A stretch of DNA of 64,000 nucleotides from Escherichia coli (GTDB taxonomy: Bacteria > Pseudomonadota > Gammaproteobacteria > Enterobacterales > Enterobacteriaceae), in NCBI RefSeq assembly GCF_048403405.1, contig NZ_CP183129.1. One strand, 5' to 3'. The translations under genes and the position numbers were made by a program. The notes beneath the pieces were generated by a model that was not told where the DNA came from, ran no database searches, and worked only from the letters and a program-made list of their open reading frames with translations. This document shows, piece after piece, positions 13,541 to 64,000 of this stretch (position 1 is its first letter; each line of letters starts with the position of its first letter).

Positions 13541-16342
13541 TTATTCGACGTTCAGCGCGTCATTAACCAGATCTTGTTGCTGTTTCTGGTGAACGGACAT
13601 ATACCCTACCGCCGGAGAGGCGGAGGCCGGGCGGCCTGCATAACGCAGAGAAGCCCCAAACGGAATCACTTCACGGAAATGATGCTGGCTGCAGTACCAT
13701 GCGCCCTGGTTGAGCGGCTCTTCCTGGCACCAGACAAAATCCTTGACGTGAGCAAACTGCTGCAACACTTCCTGCATCGCTTTATGCGGGAACGGGTAGA
13801 GTTGCTCGATACGCACAATGGCGACATCGTGTTGATTGTTCTTACGGCGTTGTTCCAACAGGTCGTAATAAACCTTACCAGAACACATCACTACGCGCTT
13901 CACACCCTTCGGATCAAGCTCGTCGATTTCACCAATGGCAGGCAGGAAGGTGCCGTTCGCCAGTTCTTCGAGGCTGGAAACCGCCAGCGGATGACGCAGC
14001 AGGGATTTCGGCGACATCACGACCAGCGGACGACGCATCCCGCGCAGCGCCTGACGACGCAGCATGTGGTAAACCTGTGCCGGGGTAGACGGTACGCACA
14101 CCTGCATGTTTTGCTCAGCACAAAGTTGCAGATAACGTTCCAGACGCGCGGAGGAGTGCTCCGGCCCCTGCCCTTCGTAACCGTGCGGCAGCAACATCAC
14201 CAGACCACACATCCGGCCCCATTTCTGTTCGCCAGAGGAGATGAACTGGTCGATAACCACCTGAGCACCGTTAGCGAAGTCACCGAACTGTGCTTCCCAG
14301 ATAGTCAGAGTGCGTGGTTCTGCGGTGGCATAACCGTATTCAAACGCCAGCACGGCTTCTTCTGACAGTACGGAGTCCCAGACACGAAACGCGCCCTGAC
14401 CGTTATGGATGTGTTGCAGCGGCGTGTAAGTGGAACCGTTAGACTGGTTGTGGATCACCGCGTGGCGGTGGAAGAAGGTACCGCGACCGGAGTCTTCACC
14501 CGACAGGCGAACCGGAATGCCTTCGTCAACCAGCGTGGCGTAAGCGAGGTTTTCCGCGCCGCCCCAGTCGAACAGTTTCTCACCAGCTGCCATCGCCTGG
14601 CGATCGCCATAAATCTTGGCAACGCGAGACTGCATTTCAACTGCTTCCGGCACCGTGCTGATGCGTTTAGCCAGTTCCTGCAGGCGCTTCATCTCAACTT
14701 TGTTCGGGTACTCTTCGTCCCATTCGTGGTTGAGGTACGGCGACCAGGTGAAAGAGTGCATGTTCATCGGACGCCACTCTGCCACTACGCAATCGCCAGC
14801 ATCCAGCGCATCGCGGTACAGGTTAACCATCTCGGTGGCATCTTCGAGCGTCGCCACTTTTTCTTGCTCCAGCTTGTCAGCGTAGATTTTGCGCGGCGTC
14901 GGATGTTTTTTGATTTTCTGATACATCAGCGGCTGGGTTGCGCTCGGCTCGTCGGCTTCGTTGTGGCCATGACGGCGGTAGCACACCAGGTCGATGAAGA
15001 CATCACGTTTAAAGGTGTTACGGAAATCGAGCGCCAGACGGGTCACAAAGGCAACGGCTTCCGGATCATCCGCGTTAACGTGGAAAATCGGTGCCTGAAC
15101 CATCTTACCGATATCAGTACAGTACGGCGTCGAACGGGCATCCAGCGGGTTAGAGGTGGTGAAGCCAACCTGGTTGTTGATAACGATACGTACCGTACCG
15201 CCAACTTCATAGCCACGCGCTTTCGACATGTTCAGGGTTTCCTGAACCACGCCCTGCCCGGTCACTGCGGCGTCACCGTGGATGGTAATTGGCAGCACTT
15301 TGTTGCTGCTCGGCTCATCAAGTCTGTCCAGACGGGCACGAACAGAACCGATAACGACCGGGCTTACAATCTCAAGGTGAGACGGGTTAAACGCCAGCGC
15401 CAGGTGTACCAGGCCGCCATCGGTCTGGAAGTCAGACGAGAAGCCCATGTGGTATTTCACGTCACCCGTGCCGAGGTGTTCTTTATGTTTACCGGCAAAC
15501 TCGTCGAACAAGTCTTGCGGTTTTTTACCCAGCACGTTCACCAGCACGTTCAGACGACCACGGTGCGCCATCCCAAGAACCACTTCGCGGGTGCCGCTGT
15601 TGCCAGCGTGGCGGATCATCTCTTTAAGCATCGGGATTAACGCGTCACCGCCTTCCAGCGAGAAGCGTTTTGCACCAGGGAATTTTGCACCGAGGTAACG
15701 TTCAAGGCCTTCAGCGGCGGTCAGTTCGCTTAAGAAGCGTTTTTTCTCTTCGCTATTGAAAGTCGCGCGACCAGACTCGATACGCTGTTGGATCCAGCGT
15801 TTTTCTTCGGTGCTGGTAATATGCATATACTCGGCGCCAATCGGGCCGCAGTAGGTTTGCTTGAGTGCTTCCAGCAGTTCGCCGAGTTTCATGGTTTCTT
15901 TGCCGCTGGCAAATGAACCGACGTTGAAGGTCTCCTGGAAGTCTGCTTCGGTCAGATCGTGGAAAGACGGATCCAGATCGGCCACTTTATCTTGCTGCCA
16001 CAGTCCCAGCGGATCGAGATTCGCATGCTGGTGACCACGGAAGCGGTATGCGTTAATGAGCTGCAGGACTTTAACCTGCTTCACATTGGTGTCAGGGTCG
16101 GAGATCGTTGAAGAGTAACGTGAAGCGTCTTTCGCCAGGCGGCGGAAATATTCACGCGTTTGAGAGTGGAATTGATCCGGTTTGACTCCCGTACCAGGTA
16201 ACTGCTGGAACGTCGAACGCCAGTTAGCGTCAACCGAGTCAGGATCGGTTAAGAAGTCTTCATAGAGCTGTTCTATCCAGCTCTGGTTTGCGCCAGAGAG
16301 GTAAGAAGAGTCCAACCAGGCTTTCAAAGCGCTGTTCTGCAT
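13541..16342 (-). CDS. sucA: 2-oxoglutarate dehydrogenase E1 component
   Basis: 933 aa; [31 protein letters not shown]. Confidence 0.96.
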
Positions 16343-16506
16343 CGTGATCCCTTAAGCATCTTTTTTATGCTTACTTCGCCGTGGATACTACCACGCACAG
16401 TGATGTGCGTGCCGGGGTTCACTTGCGAGCTCTTGTCTACGTAGTGGCTCGCGAAGGAACCTTTAAAAACTGTCTTAGTGTCAGGGGCAGTTTTTAAAGA
16501 TTTCCT

Positions 16507-16691
16507 GCATTTCTTTTGTAGGCCGGATAAGGCATTCACGCCGCATCCGGCGCTGTTTGCCTGATGCGACGCTTGCGCGTCTTATCAGGCCTACGATTTC
16601 TGCATTTCTTTTGTAGGCCGGATAAGGCGTTCACGCCGCATCCGGCACTGGTTGCCTGATGCGACGCTTGTGCGTCTTATCAGGCCTGGGT
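16507..16691. repeat. two tandem REP/BIME-type palindromic units (about 95 bp each) between sucA and sdhB
   Basis: Near-identical direct copies beginning GCATTTCTTTTGTAGGCCGGATAAGGC...GCCTGATGCGACGCTTG.GCGTCTTATCAGGCCT at 16507 and 16602. Confidence 0.75.
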
Positions 16692-17408
16692 TTACGCATT
16701 ACGCTGCAACAACATCGACTTGATATGGCCGATGGCGCGCGTCGGGTTCAGCCCCTTCGGACATACACTGACGCAGTTCATGATGCTGTGACAGCGGAAT
16801 ACACTGAATGCATCGCTCAAACCGTCGAGGCGGCTGTCAGTCTCGGTATCACGGCTATCGATCAGGAAACGATATGCCGCTAACAAGCCTGCCGGGCCGA
16901 TAAACTTATCGGGATTCCACCAGAAAGACGGACAAGAGGTTGAACAACATGCGCAGAGAATACATTCATACAACCCGTCGAGTTTTTCGCGCTGCTCTGG
17001 CATCTGTAAATGCTCGCGAGCTGGCGGATTTTGTCCATTATTCAACAGGTAAGGCTTAATTTTCTCATATTGCGCATAGAATTGTCCCATGTCTACCACC
17101 AAATCGCGGATCACCGGTAAACCTGGCAGCGGGCGAATCACAATCTTCTTGCCTGGCTGGTTGAGTGCCGAAATCGGGGTAATACAGGCCAGACCATTCT
17201 TGCCGTTCATGTTCAGACCGTCGGAACCGCACACACCTTCACGGCAGGAGCGGCGGAACGACAGGCTGGGATCTTTCTCTTTCAGCTGGATAAGCGCATC
17301 CAGCAGCATCATGTCACGACCTTCTTCCGCTTCCAGGGTGTAATCCTGCATACGCGGAGCATCATCAACATCCGGGTTATAGCGATAAATTGAAAACTCG
17401 AGTCTCAT
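16692..17408 (-). CDS. sdhB: succinate dehydrogenase iron-sulfur subunit
   Basis: 238 aa; Cys clusters. Confidence 0.96.
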   Translation of the reverse strand: MRLEFSIYRYNPDVDDAPRMQDYTLEAEEGRDMMLLDALIQLKEKDPSLSFRRSCREGVCGSDGLNMNGKNGLACITPISALNQPGKKIVIRPLPGLPVIRDLVVDMGQFYAQYEKIKPYLLNNGQNPPAREHLQMPEQREKLDGLYECILCACCSTSCPSFWWNPDKFIGPAGLLAAYRFLIDSRDTETDSRLDGLSDAFSVFRCHSIMNCVSVCPKGLNPTRAIGHIKSMLLQRNA

Positions 17409-19920: not shown

Positions 19921-20628
19921 GAATAACGCCCACATGCTGTTCTTATTATTCCCTGGGGACTACGGGCACAGAGGTTAACTTTCTGTTACCTGGAGACGTC
20001 GGGATTTCCTTCCTCCGGTCTGCTTGCGGGTCAGACAGCGTCCTTTCTATAACTGCGCGTCATGCAAAACACTGCTTCCAGATGCGAAAACGACACGTTA
20101 CAACGCTGGGTGGCTCGGGATTGCAGGGTGTTCCGGAGACCTGGCGGCAGTATAGGCTGTTCACAAAATCATTACAATTAACCTACATATAGTTTGTCGG
20201 GTTTTATCCTGAACAGTGATCCAGGTCACGATAACAACATTTATTTAATTTTTAATCATCTAATTTGACAATCATTCAACAAAGTTGTTACAAACATTAC
20301 CAGGAAAAGCATATAATGCGTAAAAGTTATGAAGTCGGTATTTCACCTAAGATTAACTTATGTAACAGTGTGGAAGTATTGACCAATTCATTCGGGACAG
20401 TTATTAGTGGTAGACAAGTTTAATAATTCGGATTGCTAAGTACTTGATTCGCCATTTATTCGTCATCAATGGATCCTTTACCTGCAAGCGCCCAGAGCTC
20501 TGTACCCAGGTTTTCCCCTCTTTCACAGAGCGGCGAGCCAAATAACAAACGGGTAAAGCCAGGTTGATGTGCGAAGGCAAATTTAAGTTCCGGCAGTCTT
20601 ACGCAATAAGGCGCTAAGGAGACCTTAA
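19921..20628. promoter_or_regulatory. divergent sdhC / gltA promoter-regulatory intergenic region
   Basis: About 700-bp AT-rich non-coding spacer between divergently transcribed sdhC and gltA, as in K-12. Confidence 0.6.
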
Positions 20629-21912
20629 ATGGCTGATACAAAAGCAAAACTCACCCTCAACGGGGACACAGCTGTTGAACTGGATGTGCTGAAAGGCACG
20701 CTGGGTCAAGATGTTATTGATATCCGTACTCTCGGTTCAAAAGGTGTGTTCACCTTTGACCCTGGCTTCACTTCAACCGCATCCTGCGAATCTAAAATTA
20801 CTTTTATTGATGGTGATGAAGGTATTTTGCTGCACCGCGGTTTCCCGATCGATCAGCTGGCGACCGATTCTAACTACCTGGAAGTTTGTTACATCCTGCT
20901 GAATGGTGAAAAACCGACTCAGGAACAGTATGACGAATTTAAAACTACGGTGACCCGTCATACCATGATCCACGAGCAGATTACCCGTCTGTTCCATGCT
21001 TTCCGTCGCGACTCGCATCCAATGGCAGTCATGTGTGGTATTACCGGCGCGCTGGCGGCGTTCTATCACGACTCGCTGGATGTTAACAATCCTCGTCATC
21101 GTGAAATTGCCGCGTTCCGCCTGCTGTCGAAAATGCCGACTATGGCCGCGATGTGTTACAAGTATTCCATTGGTCAGCCATTTGTTTACCCGCGCAACGA
21201 TCTCTCCTATGCCGGTAACTTCCTGAATATGATGTTCTCCACGCCGTGCGAACCGTATGAAGTTAATCCGATTCTGGAACGTGCTATGGACCGTATTTTG
21301 ATCCTGCACGCTGACCATGAACAGAACGCCTCCACCTCCACCGTGCGTACCGCTGGCTCTTCGGGGGCGAACCCGTTTGCCTGTATCGCAGCAGGTATTG
21401 CTTCACTGTGGGGACCTGCGCACGGTGGTGCTAACGAAGCGGCGCTGAAAATGCTGGAAGAAATCAGCTCCGTTAAACACATTCCGGAATTTGTTCGTCG
21501 TGCGAAAGACAAAAATGACTCTTTCCGCCTGATGGGCTTCGGGCACCGCGTGTACAAAAATTACGACCCGCGCGCCACCGTAATGCGTGAAACCTGCCAT
21601 GAAGTGCTGAAAGAGCTGGGTACCAAAGATGACCTGCTGGAAGTGGCTATGGAGCTGGAAAACATCGCGCTGAACGACCCGTACTTTATCGAGAAGAAAC
21701 TCTATCCGAACGTCGATTTCTACTCTGGTATCATCCTGAAAGCGATGGGTATTCCGTCTTCTATGTTCACCGTGATCTTCGCTATGGCACGCACCGTTGG
21801 CTGGATCGCCCACTGGAGCGAAATGCACAGTGACGGTATGAAGATTGCCCGTCCGCGTCAACTGTATACAGGATATGAAAAACGCGACTTTAAAAGCGAC
21901 ATCAAGCGTTAA
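20629..21912 (+). CDS. gltA: citrate synthase
   Basis: 427 aa; [36 protein letters not shown]. Confidence 0.96.
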
Positions 21913-57915: not shown

Positions 57916-58265
57916 GGGTTAATCCTCTTTGACGTATAAATTGCTGCACCAAAGGTGAACAGCGAAAAAAATAAAAATTAAAAAAGTAGCGTTGAGAAAA
58001 GTCTCGCTGACTACAGGAACAGACTATTTTTCGCGACGCGAATTATCAATCTCTTTCTGTAACCAGAATGTAAGAACATGAGCAACCGCACATATTTTGA
58101 TGATTTTTGTTACAAGGCTTAAGTTGTAGTTGAAAGGTGTGTTGAAGAAAAAATGCGTGAATTTCCAGCAAGATGAAAGCGGTTACATTTTATTTAATTA
58201 TGATTTGTAATTTTAAATTTGCTTTATGAATAAATTACGAAGCAGAATTAATTCGCGAAGAAAAG

Positions 58266-58295
58266 CAGAAAAAAACGCCGCGGAGCGCGGCGTTT
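58266..58295 (-). terminator. intrinsic terminator downstream of glnS
   Basis: Minus strand CGCCGCG-CTC-CGCGGCG followed by a T-run. Confidence 0.6.
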
Positions 58296-58362
58296 GGGAT
58301 TGTTTGCATATTTCTTGCCGGATGCGGCGTAAACGCCTCACCCGGCCTGGTAGAACTTAAAA

Positions 58363-60027: not shown

Positions 60028-60246
60028 CGTGGATTCCTCAAAGCGTAAACAACGTATAACGGCGTATGATCTTATAAGCGGGACAGGCTGACAACTGTTA
60101 GTTAGTGAAAAAGTGGTTTTGCGTAAGATATTGGGGCGTTTTCTGCGCTACAGCCAGCAGATCCTCGCGCTGGAGACGTAAGGCCAAACGTCGCCAGCCT
60201 GACGCGTCTATTAAATTTCCGGATGAGCTGGCCGCAGAGTCGTAGA

Positions 60247-61008
60247 TTAATCGGCTATGATTAAACGCGTCGATAAGGACGCAAGCGTTCTACGCGTCTG
60301 CCCATCAAGCTGATTATCCGTAATAATCTCTGTCAGTTCATTAAGATGCGCGATATTAAACAGCGACCATGAACCGTATTTTGAGCTGTCAGCCAGGAGA
60401 ATTTTGCGCGAAGCATGCGCGATAAGATCGCGTTTTAGTGCGGCTTTCTCTTCCGTGGGTGCTGTAATACCCTTTTCAAGATCCCAGCTGTTACAGCTTA
60501 AAAATGCCACGTCCGGCCAGGTATTTTGCAGCAATTTACGACCATGTTCGCCAATGCAGGACTGGCTGGAGTCGTCGATACGTCCACCGATAATCGTCAC
60601 TTCAATCTGCTTGAATTCAGCCAAAAAAAGCGCGATATGCAGGTCGCTGGTGATCACGCGAAGCGGTAAATGTGTAATCTGCCGCGCAAGTTCAATCATT
60701 GTCGTACCGGCATCAAGGACGACGGAATCCCCCGCTTTGACCATTGACGCCGCTGCGCTGGCGATGGCATGTTTTTCCGCCAGGCTGCGCTGCATTTTCT
60801 CATGGGTAGTCGGTTGGGTAGGAATAAACCGGTTGAGGGTCACACCGCCGTGTGTACGGCTGATAACACCCTGCTCATCGAGTTTTATCAGGTCTCGACG
60901 AATCGTGGCCGGCGACGCATTGGTTACCGCCACCAGCTCATCAACGGTGACCAGATTATGGCTTTTCAGGTAATCCATGATCTGCTCTAACCGGTTATAT
61001 CCCTTCAT
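60247..61008 (-). CDS. DeoR-family transcriptional regulator
   Basis: 253 aa; N-terminal HTH plus C-terminal sugar-phosphate-binding domain. Confidence 0.85.
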
Positions 61009-61009
61009 T

Positions 61010-61996
61010 TTATTCTCGCGAAATCTGCATTGCTAACTGGATGGAAACTGCCATGCTCTCAGACTTGGCTTTTCCTGTCCAGGCAATATCAAACGCGGTG
61101 CCGTGGTCGGCAGAAGTGCGAATAAATGGCAACCCGGCGGTGATATTCACCCCATCATAAAATCCAAGCAGTTTTAAAGGGATATGCCCCTGATCGTGGT
61201 ACATAGCCACTACCATATCGAATAGCCCTTCATGGCATTGCATAAACACGGTATCTGGCGGGCACGGGCCAGTAACATCAATATCTTCGGCCTGCATTGC
61301 TTCAATCGCAGGCGCGATAATCTCGATTTCTTCAGTGCCGAATAAACCGTGTTCCCCTGCATGTGGATTTACACCCGCCACGGCAATACGCGGACGCTCA
61401 ATACCAACACGTTTCAGGAAGTGGTTCGCAACTCGAATAACCGTTTTGACCCTTTCACCATTCAAAGTATCCAGGAATTTACGCAGTGAGATATGCGTCG
61501 AAATATGGATAACCTTGAGCTTATCGGTATAGAGCACCATCGCGTACTCTTTGCTGCCGGTAAGATGGGCCAGCAATTCCGTATGCCCCGGATAGTTATG
61601 CCCGCCAAGATGCAACGCTTCTTTATTCAGCGGCGCAGTGGCTATGGCTTTCACCTCGCCTGATAAGGCCAGGGCCGTTGCACGTTTGATACAGCGATAC
61701 GCTAAATCGCCTGCCGCAGCCTGTACCACTCCGGGTGTCAGCGCATCGGGGTTAGCCAGCGGCTCATCCATCACGTTAATCACGCCGGGAGCAAAATGGG
61801 CGTCGCACACCTTTTCAATGACGCGTAACTCTGCCTTCGGCGTGATATTCATCGCCATAATACGTCTCAGCGTGCGCACACAGCCCACCACCACCACCGG
61901 GGCACCAGCAAGCCCGGCTTCGCTCAGGGATTTAATAATGATCTCCGGGCCAATACCCGCCGGGTCGCCCATCGTTACCGCAATAATATTATTCAC
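61010..61996 (-). CDS. PdxA-family NAD-dependent dehydrogenase (PdxA2-like; 4-hydroxythreonine-4-phosphate dehydrogenase family)
   Basis: 328 aa with [19 protein letters not shown] and [12 protein letters not shown] motifs typical of PdxA. Confidence 0.85.
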
Positions 61997-63224
61997 TACG
62001 CTTCTCCTCGATAAAATTCAGAACCTGATGCAACGTGGTCTCATCGCCAAACCCACCGGCTTTCGTCATCACCGAACGGGACCAGACGCCGCCCAGAAAG
62101 TGACCGTATGGAACGCATTGCGCCACCTTCGCCGTAATACGAAATCCGGTCGCGCCTAACGCACTGGCTGTTGCCATTGCGACATCACCACCAGAGAGAT
62201 AAAGCGCATCGGGCATTGCGCGAAGCAGAACTTGCCGGGTAAGTTCGCCAAGAAACCGGCAAATTTTTTCCCCAAGCGCAGCGCGACTCATCTGCCAACG
62301 CTGGCAAAGGGTGTCGATCTGGTGCCTTGCTACAGAATCGTTACAGGTGTGGACAATGCAGTGGTCGCCTTTCTGCAAGGCCTGCACAATACGCGCGTCA
62401 TAGTCACTGGCATTGCCTGCCAGAATGTGTTCAACATCGACGTATATCTGTGTGATACGTGGGTGTGAATGAAGTGTGGCGATCTGCCGTTGAGCGATTT
62501 CGCTCATTGAACCAATAATGGCCAGCACGGTGGGTGGCGGCATAATCGTGGAGCGCCGGGCAACGGCATCACAAATACCAGCGGAGCCGACCAGCAGCAG
62601 CGGTTGTTTAGCCTGCATCACAGCGGCAGCGATGCGATCCAGGTCGCTGTCCGTCTGCGCATCTATCACGCCAATCCACGGTTGCTCATAAGACAAATGG
62701 CTGAGCTGAGAAACCGTAACGGGCTGGCATGGAATGGCCGTCTGCAACCGGATGATGTCCGCAATTCGGGCGCTCAATACCGGGGTTTTCGGATCGCTGG
62801 CAAACTCGGTTTCCGTTATCCGCACACCGTTTACCCAACACTCACCGGCCACTGTGGTCCTTCCCGCCTGAGGAAATGCGGGGGCAACCACTGCGCCCGT
62901 TATACCGCATGCCTTCATCAGGGCTTCAATTTCTGCGCCAATATTGCCTCGCAGCGTGGAATCTATCTTTTTAATCACGAGCGGAGGGTTATTCGCCAGA
63001 GGGAGATGACTCATCAGCGAGGTTATTTTCATCGCCGCCAGCTTAGGATCCATCGCCCGGCTGTCGCTGTTAATCACCCATACGCTGGCATCACCGCGAT
63101 AAGGCATTTCAAAGGCCACATCAACTGTATGCCCCACCTGCGCCAGGCTTACCCCCGCGTCATTGGCTCCCGTGAAATCATCGGCAACGACGAGAATGCT
63201 CGGCTTAGTGATTCCCTTTTCCAT
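61989..63224 (-). CDS. DUF1537-family four-carbon acid-sugar kinase (OtnK/DtnK-like)
   Basis: About 411 aa from MEKGITKPSILVVADDFTGANDAGV (GGAG 5 nt upstream; the longest ORF extends to 63266); stop overlaps the PdxA-like start. Confidence 0.8.
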   Translation of the reverse strand: MEKGITKPSILVVADDFTGANDAGVSLAQVGHTVDVAFEMPYRGDASVWVINSDSRAMDPKLAAMKITSLMSHLPLANNPPLVIKKIDSTLRGNIGAEIEALMKACGITGAVVAPAFPQAGRTTVAGECWVNGVRITETEFASDPKTPVLSARIADIIRLQTAIPCQPVTVSQLSHLSYEQPWIGVIDAQTDSDLDRIAAAVMQAKQPLLLVGSAGICDAVARRSTIMPPPTVLAIIGSMSEIAQRQIATLHSHPRITQIYVDVEHILAGNASDYDARIVQALQKGDHCIVHTCNDSVARHQIDTLCQRWQMSRAALGEKICRFLGELTRQVLLRAMPDALYLSGGDVAMATASALGATGFRITAKVAQCVPYGHFLGGVWSRSVMTKAGGFGDETTLHQVLNFIEEKRSE

Positions 63225-63393
63225 CATCACTCCAGGTTGTTTTATGATAACAATGATTATATTCAATCACGATTGATTAAATGTGAGCAAGCTCAAGTTA
63301 TTAATCACTCGAATAAATTATAAAATTAGACCATGTTACGTAGGCTACGGCATTTTGAATGATTGAATTCAATCACCAGAAGAGAGGTTATTT

Positions 63394-64000
63394 GTGGTAA
63401 TTATCAATAGCACGATACTGAGCGGCGCAGGCGCTATCCCTTCCCTGACGTCGCTCTTACCCGACATCAGAAAAATGCTGCTGGTCACTGACCGTAATAT
63501 TGCGCAGCTCGACGGTGTGCAGCAGATTCGCGCCTTACTGGAAAAGCACTGCCCGCAGGTTAACGTTATCGATAATGTGCCCGCAGAGCCCACGCATCAT
63601 GATGTGCGCCAGCTAATGGACGCCCCTGGCGATGCCTCTTTTGATGTGGTGGTCGGGATCGGCGGTGGCAGCGTGTTGGATGTGGCGAAGCTGCTATCGG
63701 TGCTTTGCCATCCACAATCACCAGGGCTGGATGCGCTGCTTGCGGGTGAAAAACCGACTCAGAGGGTGCAATCATGGTTGATTCCTACAACCGCCGGAAC
63801 CGGCTCAGAAGCCACGCCGAATGCGATTCTGGCAATCCCTGAGCAAAGCACGAAGGTGGGTATTATTTCCCCGGTGCTGTTACCAGACTATGTGGCGCTT
63901 TTCCCGGAACTGACCACCAGCATGCCCGCGCATATTGCGGCGTCCACGGGCATTGATGCTCTTTGCCACTTACTGGAGTGTTTTACCGCGACCGTGGCAA
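63394..64000 (+). CDS. iron-containing (group III) alcohol dehydrogenase family protein, 3'-truncated by the window end
   Basis: GTG start preceded by GAGAGG; translation VVIINSTILSGAGAIPSL...MLLVTDRNI...FDVVVGIGGGSVLDVAKLL... with GGGS motif; absent from the ORF track because no stop codon lies inside the window. Confidence 0.7.
   Translation, partial: MVIINSTILSGAGAIPSLTSLLPDIRKMLLVTDRNIAQLDGVQQIRALLEKHCPQVNVIDNVPAEPTHHDVRQLMDAPGDASFDVVVGIGGGSVLDVAKLLSVLCHPQSPGLDALLAGEKPTQRVQSWLIPTTAGTGSEATPNAILAIPEQSTKVGIISPVLLPDYVALFPELTTSMPAHIAASTGIDALCHLLECFTATVA

Follow-up and report, generated by a model that had tools for sequence, protein, structure and literature searches.

An accessory island between glnS and nagE of Escherichia coli may feed a sialic-acid-like sugar acid, possibly of pectin origin, into D-threonate catabolism

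What supplies the D-threonate-type enzymes encoded beside glnS in part of the Escherichia coli population? The question is raised by the right end of a 64,000-nt stretch of E. coli DNA (contig NZ_CP183129.1; the whole stretch is hereafter called the window), where a first-pass annotation made from the letters had read a strain-specific utilization locus for threonate- or erythronate-like acid sugars, with genes for a DeoR regulator, a PdxA-family dehydrogenase and a DUF1537 kinase in a leftward operon, and a divergent gene for an iron-type alcohol dehydrogenase (Fe-ADH). We know of no established natural origin of D-threonate. Our analysis of this locus and its relatives indicates that these genes belong to a nine-gene island that, judging from sequence, probably encodes one catabolic pathway joining sialic-acid-like upper and D-threonate lower modules. 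The best overall explanation, to which we give about one chance in two, would be a single pathway with 3-deoxy-D-lyxo-heptulosaric acid (Dha) of pectin rhamnogalacturonan II (RG-II) as the favoured substrate, the name of the sugar being a tentative proposal when taken by itself. D-threonate appears to be an internal intermediate of this pathway and not a nutrient taken up.

The open reading frames (ORFs) of the window bear out the earlier gene map, with the DeoR, PdxA-family and DUF1537 ORFs on the minus strand and the Fe-ADH gene diverging from a GTG at 63394, preceded by an AGAGAGG ribosome-binding site, and running off the window. The kinase gene runs 8 nt into the start of the PdxA gene, and a single base lies between the pdxA2 stop and the DeoR start. 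Model searches returned the same four families as the first-pass annotation, and subgroups were called with NCBIfam curated equivalog models, each having its own cut-off. This hidden Markov model (HMM) check answered the question of the kinase subgroup, which had been left open: the protein scored 532 bits against the D-threonate kinase (DtnK) model NF047819 (cut-off 450), versus 106 bits against the 3-oxo-tetronate kinase (OtnK) model (cut-off 350) and 31 bits against the 3-oxo-isoapionate kinase (OiaK) model (cut-off 700), and no separate DenK model appeared among its NCBIfam matches. The kinase carries a DDFTGA motif (VVADDFTGANDAG), and its Yersinia ortholog (51% identical) has PF07005 and PF17042 on record, that is, the SBD_N plus NBD_C architecture. 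In the RefSeq record of a 100% identical genome, it starts at the ATG at window position 63224 (411 aa) and not at the TTG at 63266. Its best solved relative is 4xfm/4xgj (317 bits), and 4xfm, which we take to be a characterised DtnK, is 93% identical to the kinase within the Pectobacterium version of the same cluster type.

The PdxA-family protein scored 681 bits against NF002891 (D-threonate 4-phosphate dehydrogenase; cut-off 583), matched the PDB entries 6e85, 'D-threonate 4-phosphate dehydrogenase' (581 bits), and 2hi1, deposited as 4-hydroxythreonine-4-phosphate dehydrogenase 2 (557 bits), and is 75% identical to the Salmonella PdxA2 (PMC12928451). The third product of the operon was matched over its full length (residues 5-252, E 1e-50) by the AgaR, YgbI and GlpR models, all below their equivalog cut-offs; it is labelled a DeoR/GlpR family regulator by PGAP and has the HTH_DeoR plus DeoRC architecture, both Pfam domains being recorded in the Yersinia ortholog. 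Collectively, membership in the DUF1537 and PdxA families is far beyond chance, and by their model scores the kinase and the dehydrogenase are an ordinary, correctly annotatable DtnK/PdxA2 pair.

Sequence past position 64000, where the first-pass annotation had proposed to look for a transporter and the remaining enzymes, indeed holds both. In NZ_CP128875 (100% identical over the query), the Fe-ADH gene is followed by genes for a dihydrodipicolinate synthase (DHDPS)-family protein, a TerC-family membrane protein, a 'sialidase family' protein, a YhcH/YjgK/YiaL protein and an SLC13-family permease, and then by nagE. The full-length Fe-ADH (WP_000234745), taken from the E. coli locus L001, scored ~215 bits against the lactaldehyde reductase, 4-hydroxybutyrate dehydrogenase and ErcA models, all below cut-off, and its closest solved structures are methanol dehydrogenase, FucO and 1,3-propanediol dehydrogenase. 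By sequence it lies clearly within the iron-type (group III) alcohol dehydrogenase family, and all of its relatives convert primary alcohols to aldehydes and back, 4-hydroxybutyrate and succinic semialdehyde being one such pair.

The DHDPS-family protein (the lyase, WP_001126960) has the features of DHDPS/NAL class I aldolases, namely the Schiff-base Lys, the catalytic Tyr/Thr and GxxGE, and the equivalents of the Schiff-base K161, Y133, T44 and E47 are kept in 55/55 cluster-linked orthologs. Its best-scoring family is DapA, at 191 bits below the cut-off of 206; scores of 114 against TIGR00683 (cut-off 382) and 148 against NF003164 (cut-off 281) place it outside NanA. A DapA-type Arg138 is kept in 51/55 orthologs at a position where NanA has Leu (Leu142-type pocket), and Thr45 is replaced by Asn and Tyr107 by Phe in 52/55. 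The Arg138 of DapA holds aspartate semialdehyde, which is a four-carbon aldehyde-acid, by its distal carboxylate, and DapA itself forms as adduct a 7-carbon 2-oxo-4-hydroxy diacid that has the skeleton of Dha. The aldehyde half released by the lyase should therefore be a four-carbon aldehyde-acid and its substrate, in turn, a 7-carbon 2-oxo-3-deoxy diacid.

The sialidase-family protein carries a Pfam BNR_2 domain (1e-63), and we refer to it as BNR2. No signal peptide is predicted in it, and from its sequence the protein is cytoplasmic. Sequence searches returned no match in the PDB or NCBIfam, and its link to sialidases came only via profile and fold searches. Its predicted structure (predicted local distance difference test, pLDDT, 93) is a six-bladed beta-propeller with Asp-box repeats, as in the GH33 fold, and Foldseek aligned it to GH33 sialidases with template modelling (TM) scores of 0.64-0.72 (query-normalised) at 12-17% identity; among the 50 Foldseek matches listed, 49 are sialidase-domain chains, the exception being the designed metalloprotein 4j9t. 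In the profile alignment, R219, R309 and Y352 fall on the sialidase Arg2, Arg3 and nucleophile Tyr. The GH33 catalytic set (Arg triad with RIP, Asp acid/base and Tyr-Glu pair) is nevertheless not found in BNR2, and an invariant N32-H33-A34 stands in its family in place of the RIP arginine. BNR2 is, by these features, a sialidase-fold enzyme that should not be classed with the sialidases; its activity might be hydrolysis of a Dha ketoside, removal of a substituent or lactone opening. Its family comprises >1,400 cluster representatives at E <= 1e-10 and is routinely mis-annotated as 'exo-alpha-sialidase'.

The YhcH protein belongs to the YhcH/YjgK/YiaL family (DUF386; TIGR00022, score 97, cut-off 45.5) and is not the N-acetylneuraminic acid (Neu5Ac) enzyme, as it reached 91.5 against the NanQ equivalog (cut-off 160). 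In published work (PMC8141875), YhcH is an anomerase from which a class I lyase receives cyclic 3-deoxy-2-ulosonic acids in their open form. The permease combines CitMHS and Na_sulph_symp domains, as in a di-/tricarboxylate-type carrier, and the transporters seen in related clusters are all of the organic-anion type (CitMHS/DASS, SSF, DctPQM TRAP, TAXI TRAP and ACS-MFS). With BNR2, YhcH and the DHDPS-family lyase placed beside an anion transporter, the island thus repeats the logic of sialic acid release, ring-opening and cleavage. No GntP-type threonate permease is found in the annotated gene content of the island, in agreement with an intracellular formation of D-threonate.

The upper and lower sets of genes stay together far beyond E. 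coli. We collected relatives of BNR2, one genome per species, with a 10-sequence alignment as query, which yielded at least 561 confirmed relatives, and in the 80 loci kept, the other island genes were sought by tblastn within 9 kb of BNR2. DtnK and the lyase were each found in 57/80 loci, PdxA2 and Fe-ADH in 56/80, YhcH in 46/80 and DeoR in 41/80; among the remainder, several loci are truncated by contig ends. The order of the genes is not fixed, with at least seven arrangements among gamma-, beta- and alpha-proteobacteria, Bacillus, Paenibacillus and Negativicutes: it differs between Enterobacterales, Rhodocyclales, Bacillus, Paenibacillus/Lucifera, Methylobacterium, a metagenomic contig of 34% GC that encodes a TRAP transporter and a contig of 71% GC that encodes an ABC transporter. 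In Rhodocyclales, both sets form a single run, DeoR-DtnK-PdxA2-BNR2-FeADH. Linkage kept through such rearrangement argues for a shared function.

The promoter region points in the same direction. From dtnK to the Fe-ADH gene, the spacer of the divergent operons measures 169 bp, and the palindrome TGATT-N6-AATCA occurs twice in the whole window versus 0.1 times expected, both copies lying in this spacer, identical to each other and with a site between them that resembles the CRP consensus. The palindromes and the CRP-like TGTGA-N6-TCA site are conserved in the orthologous spacers of Enterobacterales, Vibrio and Gilliamella, with TGTGAGCA of the CRP-like site kept in 36/39. Both operons are probably under DeoR and CRP control, as read from these elements.

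One could instead see two independent modules here, an operon for external D-threonate (DeoR, PdxA2, DtnK), in essence the locus of the first-pass annotation, and an unrelated operon scavenging a sialic-acid-like sugar. By their family models, and reportedly also by the work of Zhang et al. 2016, DtnK and PdxA2 suffice to convert D-threonate to dihydroxyacetone phosphate (DHAP); the SLC13/CitMHS permease could in principle import threonate; and some genomes have only SSF-BNR2-SDR, with no kinase pair nearby. However, both sets are adjacent in 56-57 of the 80 species under many gene orders and fused into the Rhodocyclales run, both arms share the identical candidate operators and one CRP-like site, and a split would leave the products of the lyase and Fe-ADH with no onward route, so that we consider two modules unlikely. 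The threonate/erythronate-like utilization locus of the first-pass annotation is likewise probably not a stand-alone unit, given the missing GntP-type permease and a six-gene divergent operon linked to it across phyla. A role in vitamin B6 metabolism, in which the kinase and PdxA2 would recycle toxic 4-hydroxy-L-threonine to 4-phosphohydroxythreonine, is how the pair is read in the genome paper on strain BEN2908 (PMC12928451). The passages citing Thiaville et al. 2016 in PMC10971088, PMC9997740 and PMC12928451 state that the DUF1537 kinase STM0162 phosphorylates 4-hydroxy-L-threonine and that PdxA2 can carry out the PdxA reaction. A pdxA pathway of its own is present in E. coli, however, and the pair sits in a catabolic cluster bearing a CRP site together with a lyase, a transporter and an anomerase, which renders a B6 role most improbable.

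A single catabolic pathway could run as follows. The carboxylate permease (SLC13/CitMHS type), possibly aided by TerC, would import a cyclic 3-deoxy-2-ulosonic acid or a small glycoside of it, and BNR2 and the YhcH-type anomerase would free the sugar acid and open its ring. The DapA-like class I lyase would then yield pyruvate and the four-carbon aldehyde-acid 2,3-dihydroxy-4-oxobutanoate, which Fe-ADH would reduce to D-threonate; DtnK would phosphorylate the latter, and PdxA2 would oxidise and decarboxylate the 4-phospho product to DHAP. We infer this step order, the direction of the Fe-ADH reaction and the part played by BNR2 from the sequences and their genomic context. Overall, pyruvate, DHAP and CO2 would be obtained per one ATP in a redox-neutral balance. 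The extra redox step that the first-pass annotation had attributed to Fe-ADH was a good guess, the enzyme most likely making D-threonate from the aldehyde-acid in the cell.

Which sugar acid would enter this route? Reduction of 2,3-dihydroxy-4-oxobutanoate yields threonate or erythronate. Dha is a ketosidically linked residue of RG-II (bioRxiv 10.64898/2026.03.13.711244). In Fischer projection, its D-lyxo configuration has C4 left, C5 left and C6 right; by derivation, cleavage between C3 and C4 and reduction of C4 leave C2-OH left and C3-OH right, which is D-threonate, a match that is not built into the hypothesis. To our knowledge, no other natural compound combines the 7-carbon 3-deoxy-2-ulosaric skeleton with threo C5/C6. 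As other substrates, we considered and, on chemical grounds, rejected 3-deoxy-D-manno-octulosonic acid (Kdo), 2-keto-3-deoxynononic acid (KDN)/Neu5Ac and 3-deoxy-D-arabino-heptulosonic acid (DAH), whose aldehyde halves (arabinose, mannose/N-acetylmannosamine (ManNAc) and erythrose, respectively) have no route to D-threonate.

The host range fits a plant-wall sugar, the hosts being heavily plant-associated (Pectobacterium, Dickeya, Erwinia, Pantoea, Kosakonia, Bradyrhizobium, Methylobacterium and Gilliamella, the last a bee-gut pectin degrader). BNR2, DHDPS and PdxA genes also occur together on a fungal contig, and on a second one BNR2 lies beside a sugar transporter. The two contigs (L088 8024-13403 and L090 10001-11182) are apparently fungal from their Fungal_trans and Zn_clus regulators and intron-like gene fragments; their sialidase-fold homologs are 48-50% identical, and the L088 copy adjoins DHDPS-family, PdxA-family and MFS genes. 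Many fungi lack GH143, the family to which known Dha hydrolases belong (bioRxiv 10.64898/2026.03.13.711244), which would leave room for another Dha enzyme. Our literature searches found no published Dha breakdown pathway and no description of the cluster pathway.

Several points weigh against a Dha pathway. The functions of all island genes are read from sequence and gene context. The kinase is only ~40% identical to the characterised Salmonella DtnK (PMC12928451), so its specificity rests on the HMM cut-off and on the assignment of 4xfm as a characterised DtnK. BNR2 has H203, 16 residues before Arg2, at the position of the Glu partner of the nucleophile Tyr, and no RIP arginine was aligned in it, the N-terminal catalytic residues lying outside the alignment coverage; free Dha, moreover, would have no obvious need for BNR2. 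TerC has no clear role in the proposed scheme. In most relatives, its place and that of SLC13 are taken by an SSF transporter and an additional SDR, and the scheme has no role for the SDR either. Some Bradyrhizobium and Pantoea genomes have only SSF-BNR2-SDR near the BNR2 gene. The flanks of four Firmicute/Pasteurellaceae loci hold no pectin-degrading enzymes; they contain sigma-54 PrpR-like regulators, organic-anion transporters, a D-2-hydroxyacid dehydrogenase and unrelated genes. Finally, the neighbourhood may have been mentioned earlier in the Zhang/Thiaville 2016 work on DUF1537, which lies outside the literature covered.

Part of this would suit a variant with the same architecture and another substrate, such as the glycoside of a different ulosonic acid or an acid sugar made by microbes or fungi. 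The low identity of the kinase to DtnK, the unexplained SDR and the departure of the BNR2 active site from sialidases all speak for it, as do the varying transporter types, among which an SBP_bac_5 ABC system suggests a larger ligand. Yet PdxA2 is close to the Salmonella enzyme and above its equivalog cut-off, the DapA-type Arg points to a distal carboxylate, and we know of no second natural acid of the required threo type, all of which makes a non-Dha substrate rather improbable; a non-pyruvate half consisting of D-threonate or a close analogue accepted by a DtnK-like kinase, as this variant would have it, is held with the same reserve. We retain the single pathway with Dha as favoured substrate.

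The island itself spans ~9.1 kb, its left third lying inside the window and ~5.2 kb beyond the window end. The left junction, 84 nt past the glnS stop, is where the match to island-less strains ends, and the right-hand one immediately precedes the nagE terminator (L001); the island stands in place of ~36 nt plus a repetitive extragenic palindrome (REP)-like sequence. In MG1655 (K-12), nagE and glnS are adjacent, with a 202-bp spacer and no island, as they are in a sampled island-less strain, and the block is thus an insertion relative to K-12, as the first-pass annotation had proposed. It is not strain-specific. Megablast of window positions 60028-64000 found the full block at the same site in 1047 of 5426 complete E. 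coli genomes (19%), the sampled matches being 98.7-100% identical, and most other E. coli genomes match only the first 76-84 nt of the query. A 2026 genome paper (PMC12928451) already lists this block as 'GR 6 nagE..glnS', an uncharacterised sugar-metabolism region that is complete in APEC O1, IMT5155, RS218, IHE3034, 78-Pyelo, CFT073 and LF82, so that all seven comparison strains, of the B2 type and classed as extraintestinal pathogenic (ExPEC) or adherent-invasive (AIEC) E. coli, carry GR 6. The block is accessory, yet neither strain-specific nor new to the literature.

No integrase or mobility genes are annotated in the island, its junctions are clean and without repeats, and its GC content (0.49-0.57) is close to that of the flanks, with no shift in composition; a mobile-element origin was rejected on these grounds. 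The megablast search also returned 61 places on plasmids, where presumably only the short glnS flank or a REP-like segment was matched. For the chiP-glnS interval of the window (~57916-58362), the K-12 annotation of the corresponding region has a small RNA gene, chiZ, immediately upstream of chiP. The coordinates of the features are as follows.

Table 1. Features of the glnS-proximal part of the island in window coordinates
Feature	Position	Strand	Remarks
Left part of accessory island	60112..64000		Between glnS and nagE; left junction approximate (~60112)
DeoR/GlpR-family repressor gene	60247-61008	-	Last gene of the leftward operon
pdxA2, D-threonate 4-phosphate dehydrogenase (decarboxylating), yielding DHAP	61010-61996	-	NF002891
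dtnK, DUF1537-family D-threonate kinase	61989..63224	-	NF047819; longest ORF to 63266
Palindrome TGATTATATTCAATCA, candidate DeoR operator 1	63254..63269		TGATT-N6-AATCA
CRP-like site TGTGAGCAAGCTCAAG	63282..63297		Resembles CRP consensus TGTGA-N6-TCACA, read from sequence
Palindrome TGATTGAATTCAATCA, candidate DeoR operator 2	63360..63375		Just upstream of the Fe-ADH ribosome-binding site
Iron-type alcohol dehydrogenase gene, 5' part (202/385 codons)	63394..64000	+	First of six rightward genes

Some further features of the related loci deserve mention. E. coli, Klebsiella spallanzanii, Kluyvera and a gut Enterobacteriaceae genome have TerC and SLC13 exactly where most other clusters have the SSF symporter and the SDR (L001 14475-15233 and 16919-18199 vs L005 8587-9999 and 11641-12315), apparently a position-for-position swap that may mark a changed form of the imported substrate. 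TerC is met again beside the cluster of an unrelated lineage of high GC, which has an ABC transporter (L091 2645-3688, L063); TerC may therefore have a real role, in metal supply or transport. In Paenibacillus ginsengihumi (L071), the SLC13-type permease is 76% identical to that of E. coli and its sialidase-fold neighbour 63%, identities that suggest cross-phylum transfer of the transporter gene. The Pantoea cluster (L003/L004, 4110-6451) has PdxA but no kinase or DeoR gene between PdxA and the Fe-ADH gene, with an unassigned 850-bp gap after PdxA. Lonepinella koalarum (L064) carries a second, more distant DHDPS-family gene and a second sialidase-like fragment (16315-17283 and 20350-20883), ~5-9 kb downstream of the cluster, which may belong to a separate sialic acid locus. 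In Pantoea allii (L015/L016) and Rahnella bruchi (L042/L043), the cluster lies on two contigs per assembly with identical match statistics, probably an assembly duplication and not paralogy.

A conserved pathway variant of this kind is apparently undescribed in the literature, and Dha makes a specific, testable guess at its substrate. If true, the cluster would explain the natural source of D-threonate and link it to Dha breakdown, would assign a function to GR 6, and would point to fragments of plant pectin being cross-fed, both in the gut and on the surfaces of plants, with B2/ExPEC strains using sugar released by gut Bacteroides. Conceivably, the first described catabolic route for Dha is encoded by this island together with its counterparts in >80 bacterial species and, as a partial set, in fungi; no less speculatively, this route would employ a Tyr/His sialidase-fold enzyme and a DapA-like enzyme in reverse, and would give B2/ExPEC strains access to a diet-derived sugar.

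Among known systems, sialic acid catabolism (sialidase, NanQ/YhcH and NanA) shares with the island three protein families beside an organic-anion transporter. The island lyase, however, is DapA-like with Arg138 and not NanA, its sialidase-fold protein is cytoplasmic with His for the catalytic Glu, and the non-pyruvate product would be a four-carbon compound passed to DtnK/PdxA2 and not to the ManNAc route. With DapA (4-hydroxy-tetrahydrodipicolinate synthase), the lyase has Lys161, Tyr133, Thr44 and Arg138 in common, and the carbon skeleton handled would match, whereas it scores below the DapA cut-off and carries the Thr45 to Asn and Tyr107 to Phe replacements; in this catabolic context, the DapA-like lyase probably runs as a cleavage enzyme. 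D-apiose catabolism with the DUF1537 kinase OiaK, reportedly the subject of Carter et al. 2018, likewise pairs a rare RG-II sugar with a kinase of this family, but the island kinase falls far short of the OiaK cut-off (31 bits vs 700), and enzymes and intermediates differ. D-threonate catabolism by DtnK and PdxA2, which Zhang et al. are said to have described in 2016 in Salmonella and Pectobacterium, resembles the island in its two enzymes, in an adjacent regulator of the DeoR family and in DHAP as end product. It differs in that the island has no threonate permease and its enzyme pair is wired to a six-gene upstream operon, from which it follows that D-threonate is here probably made inside the cell and not imported.

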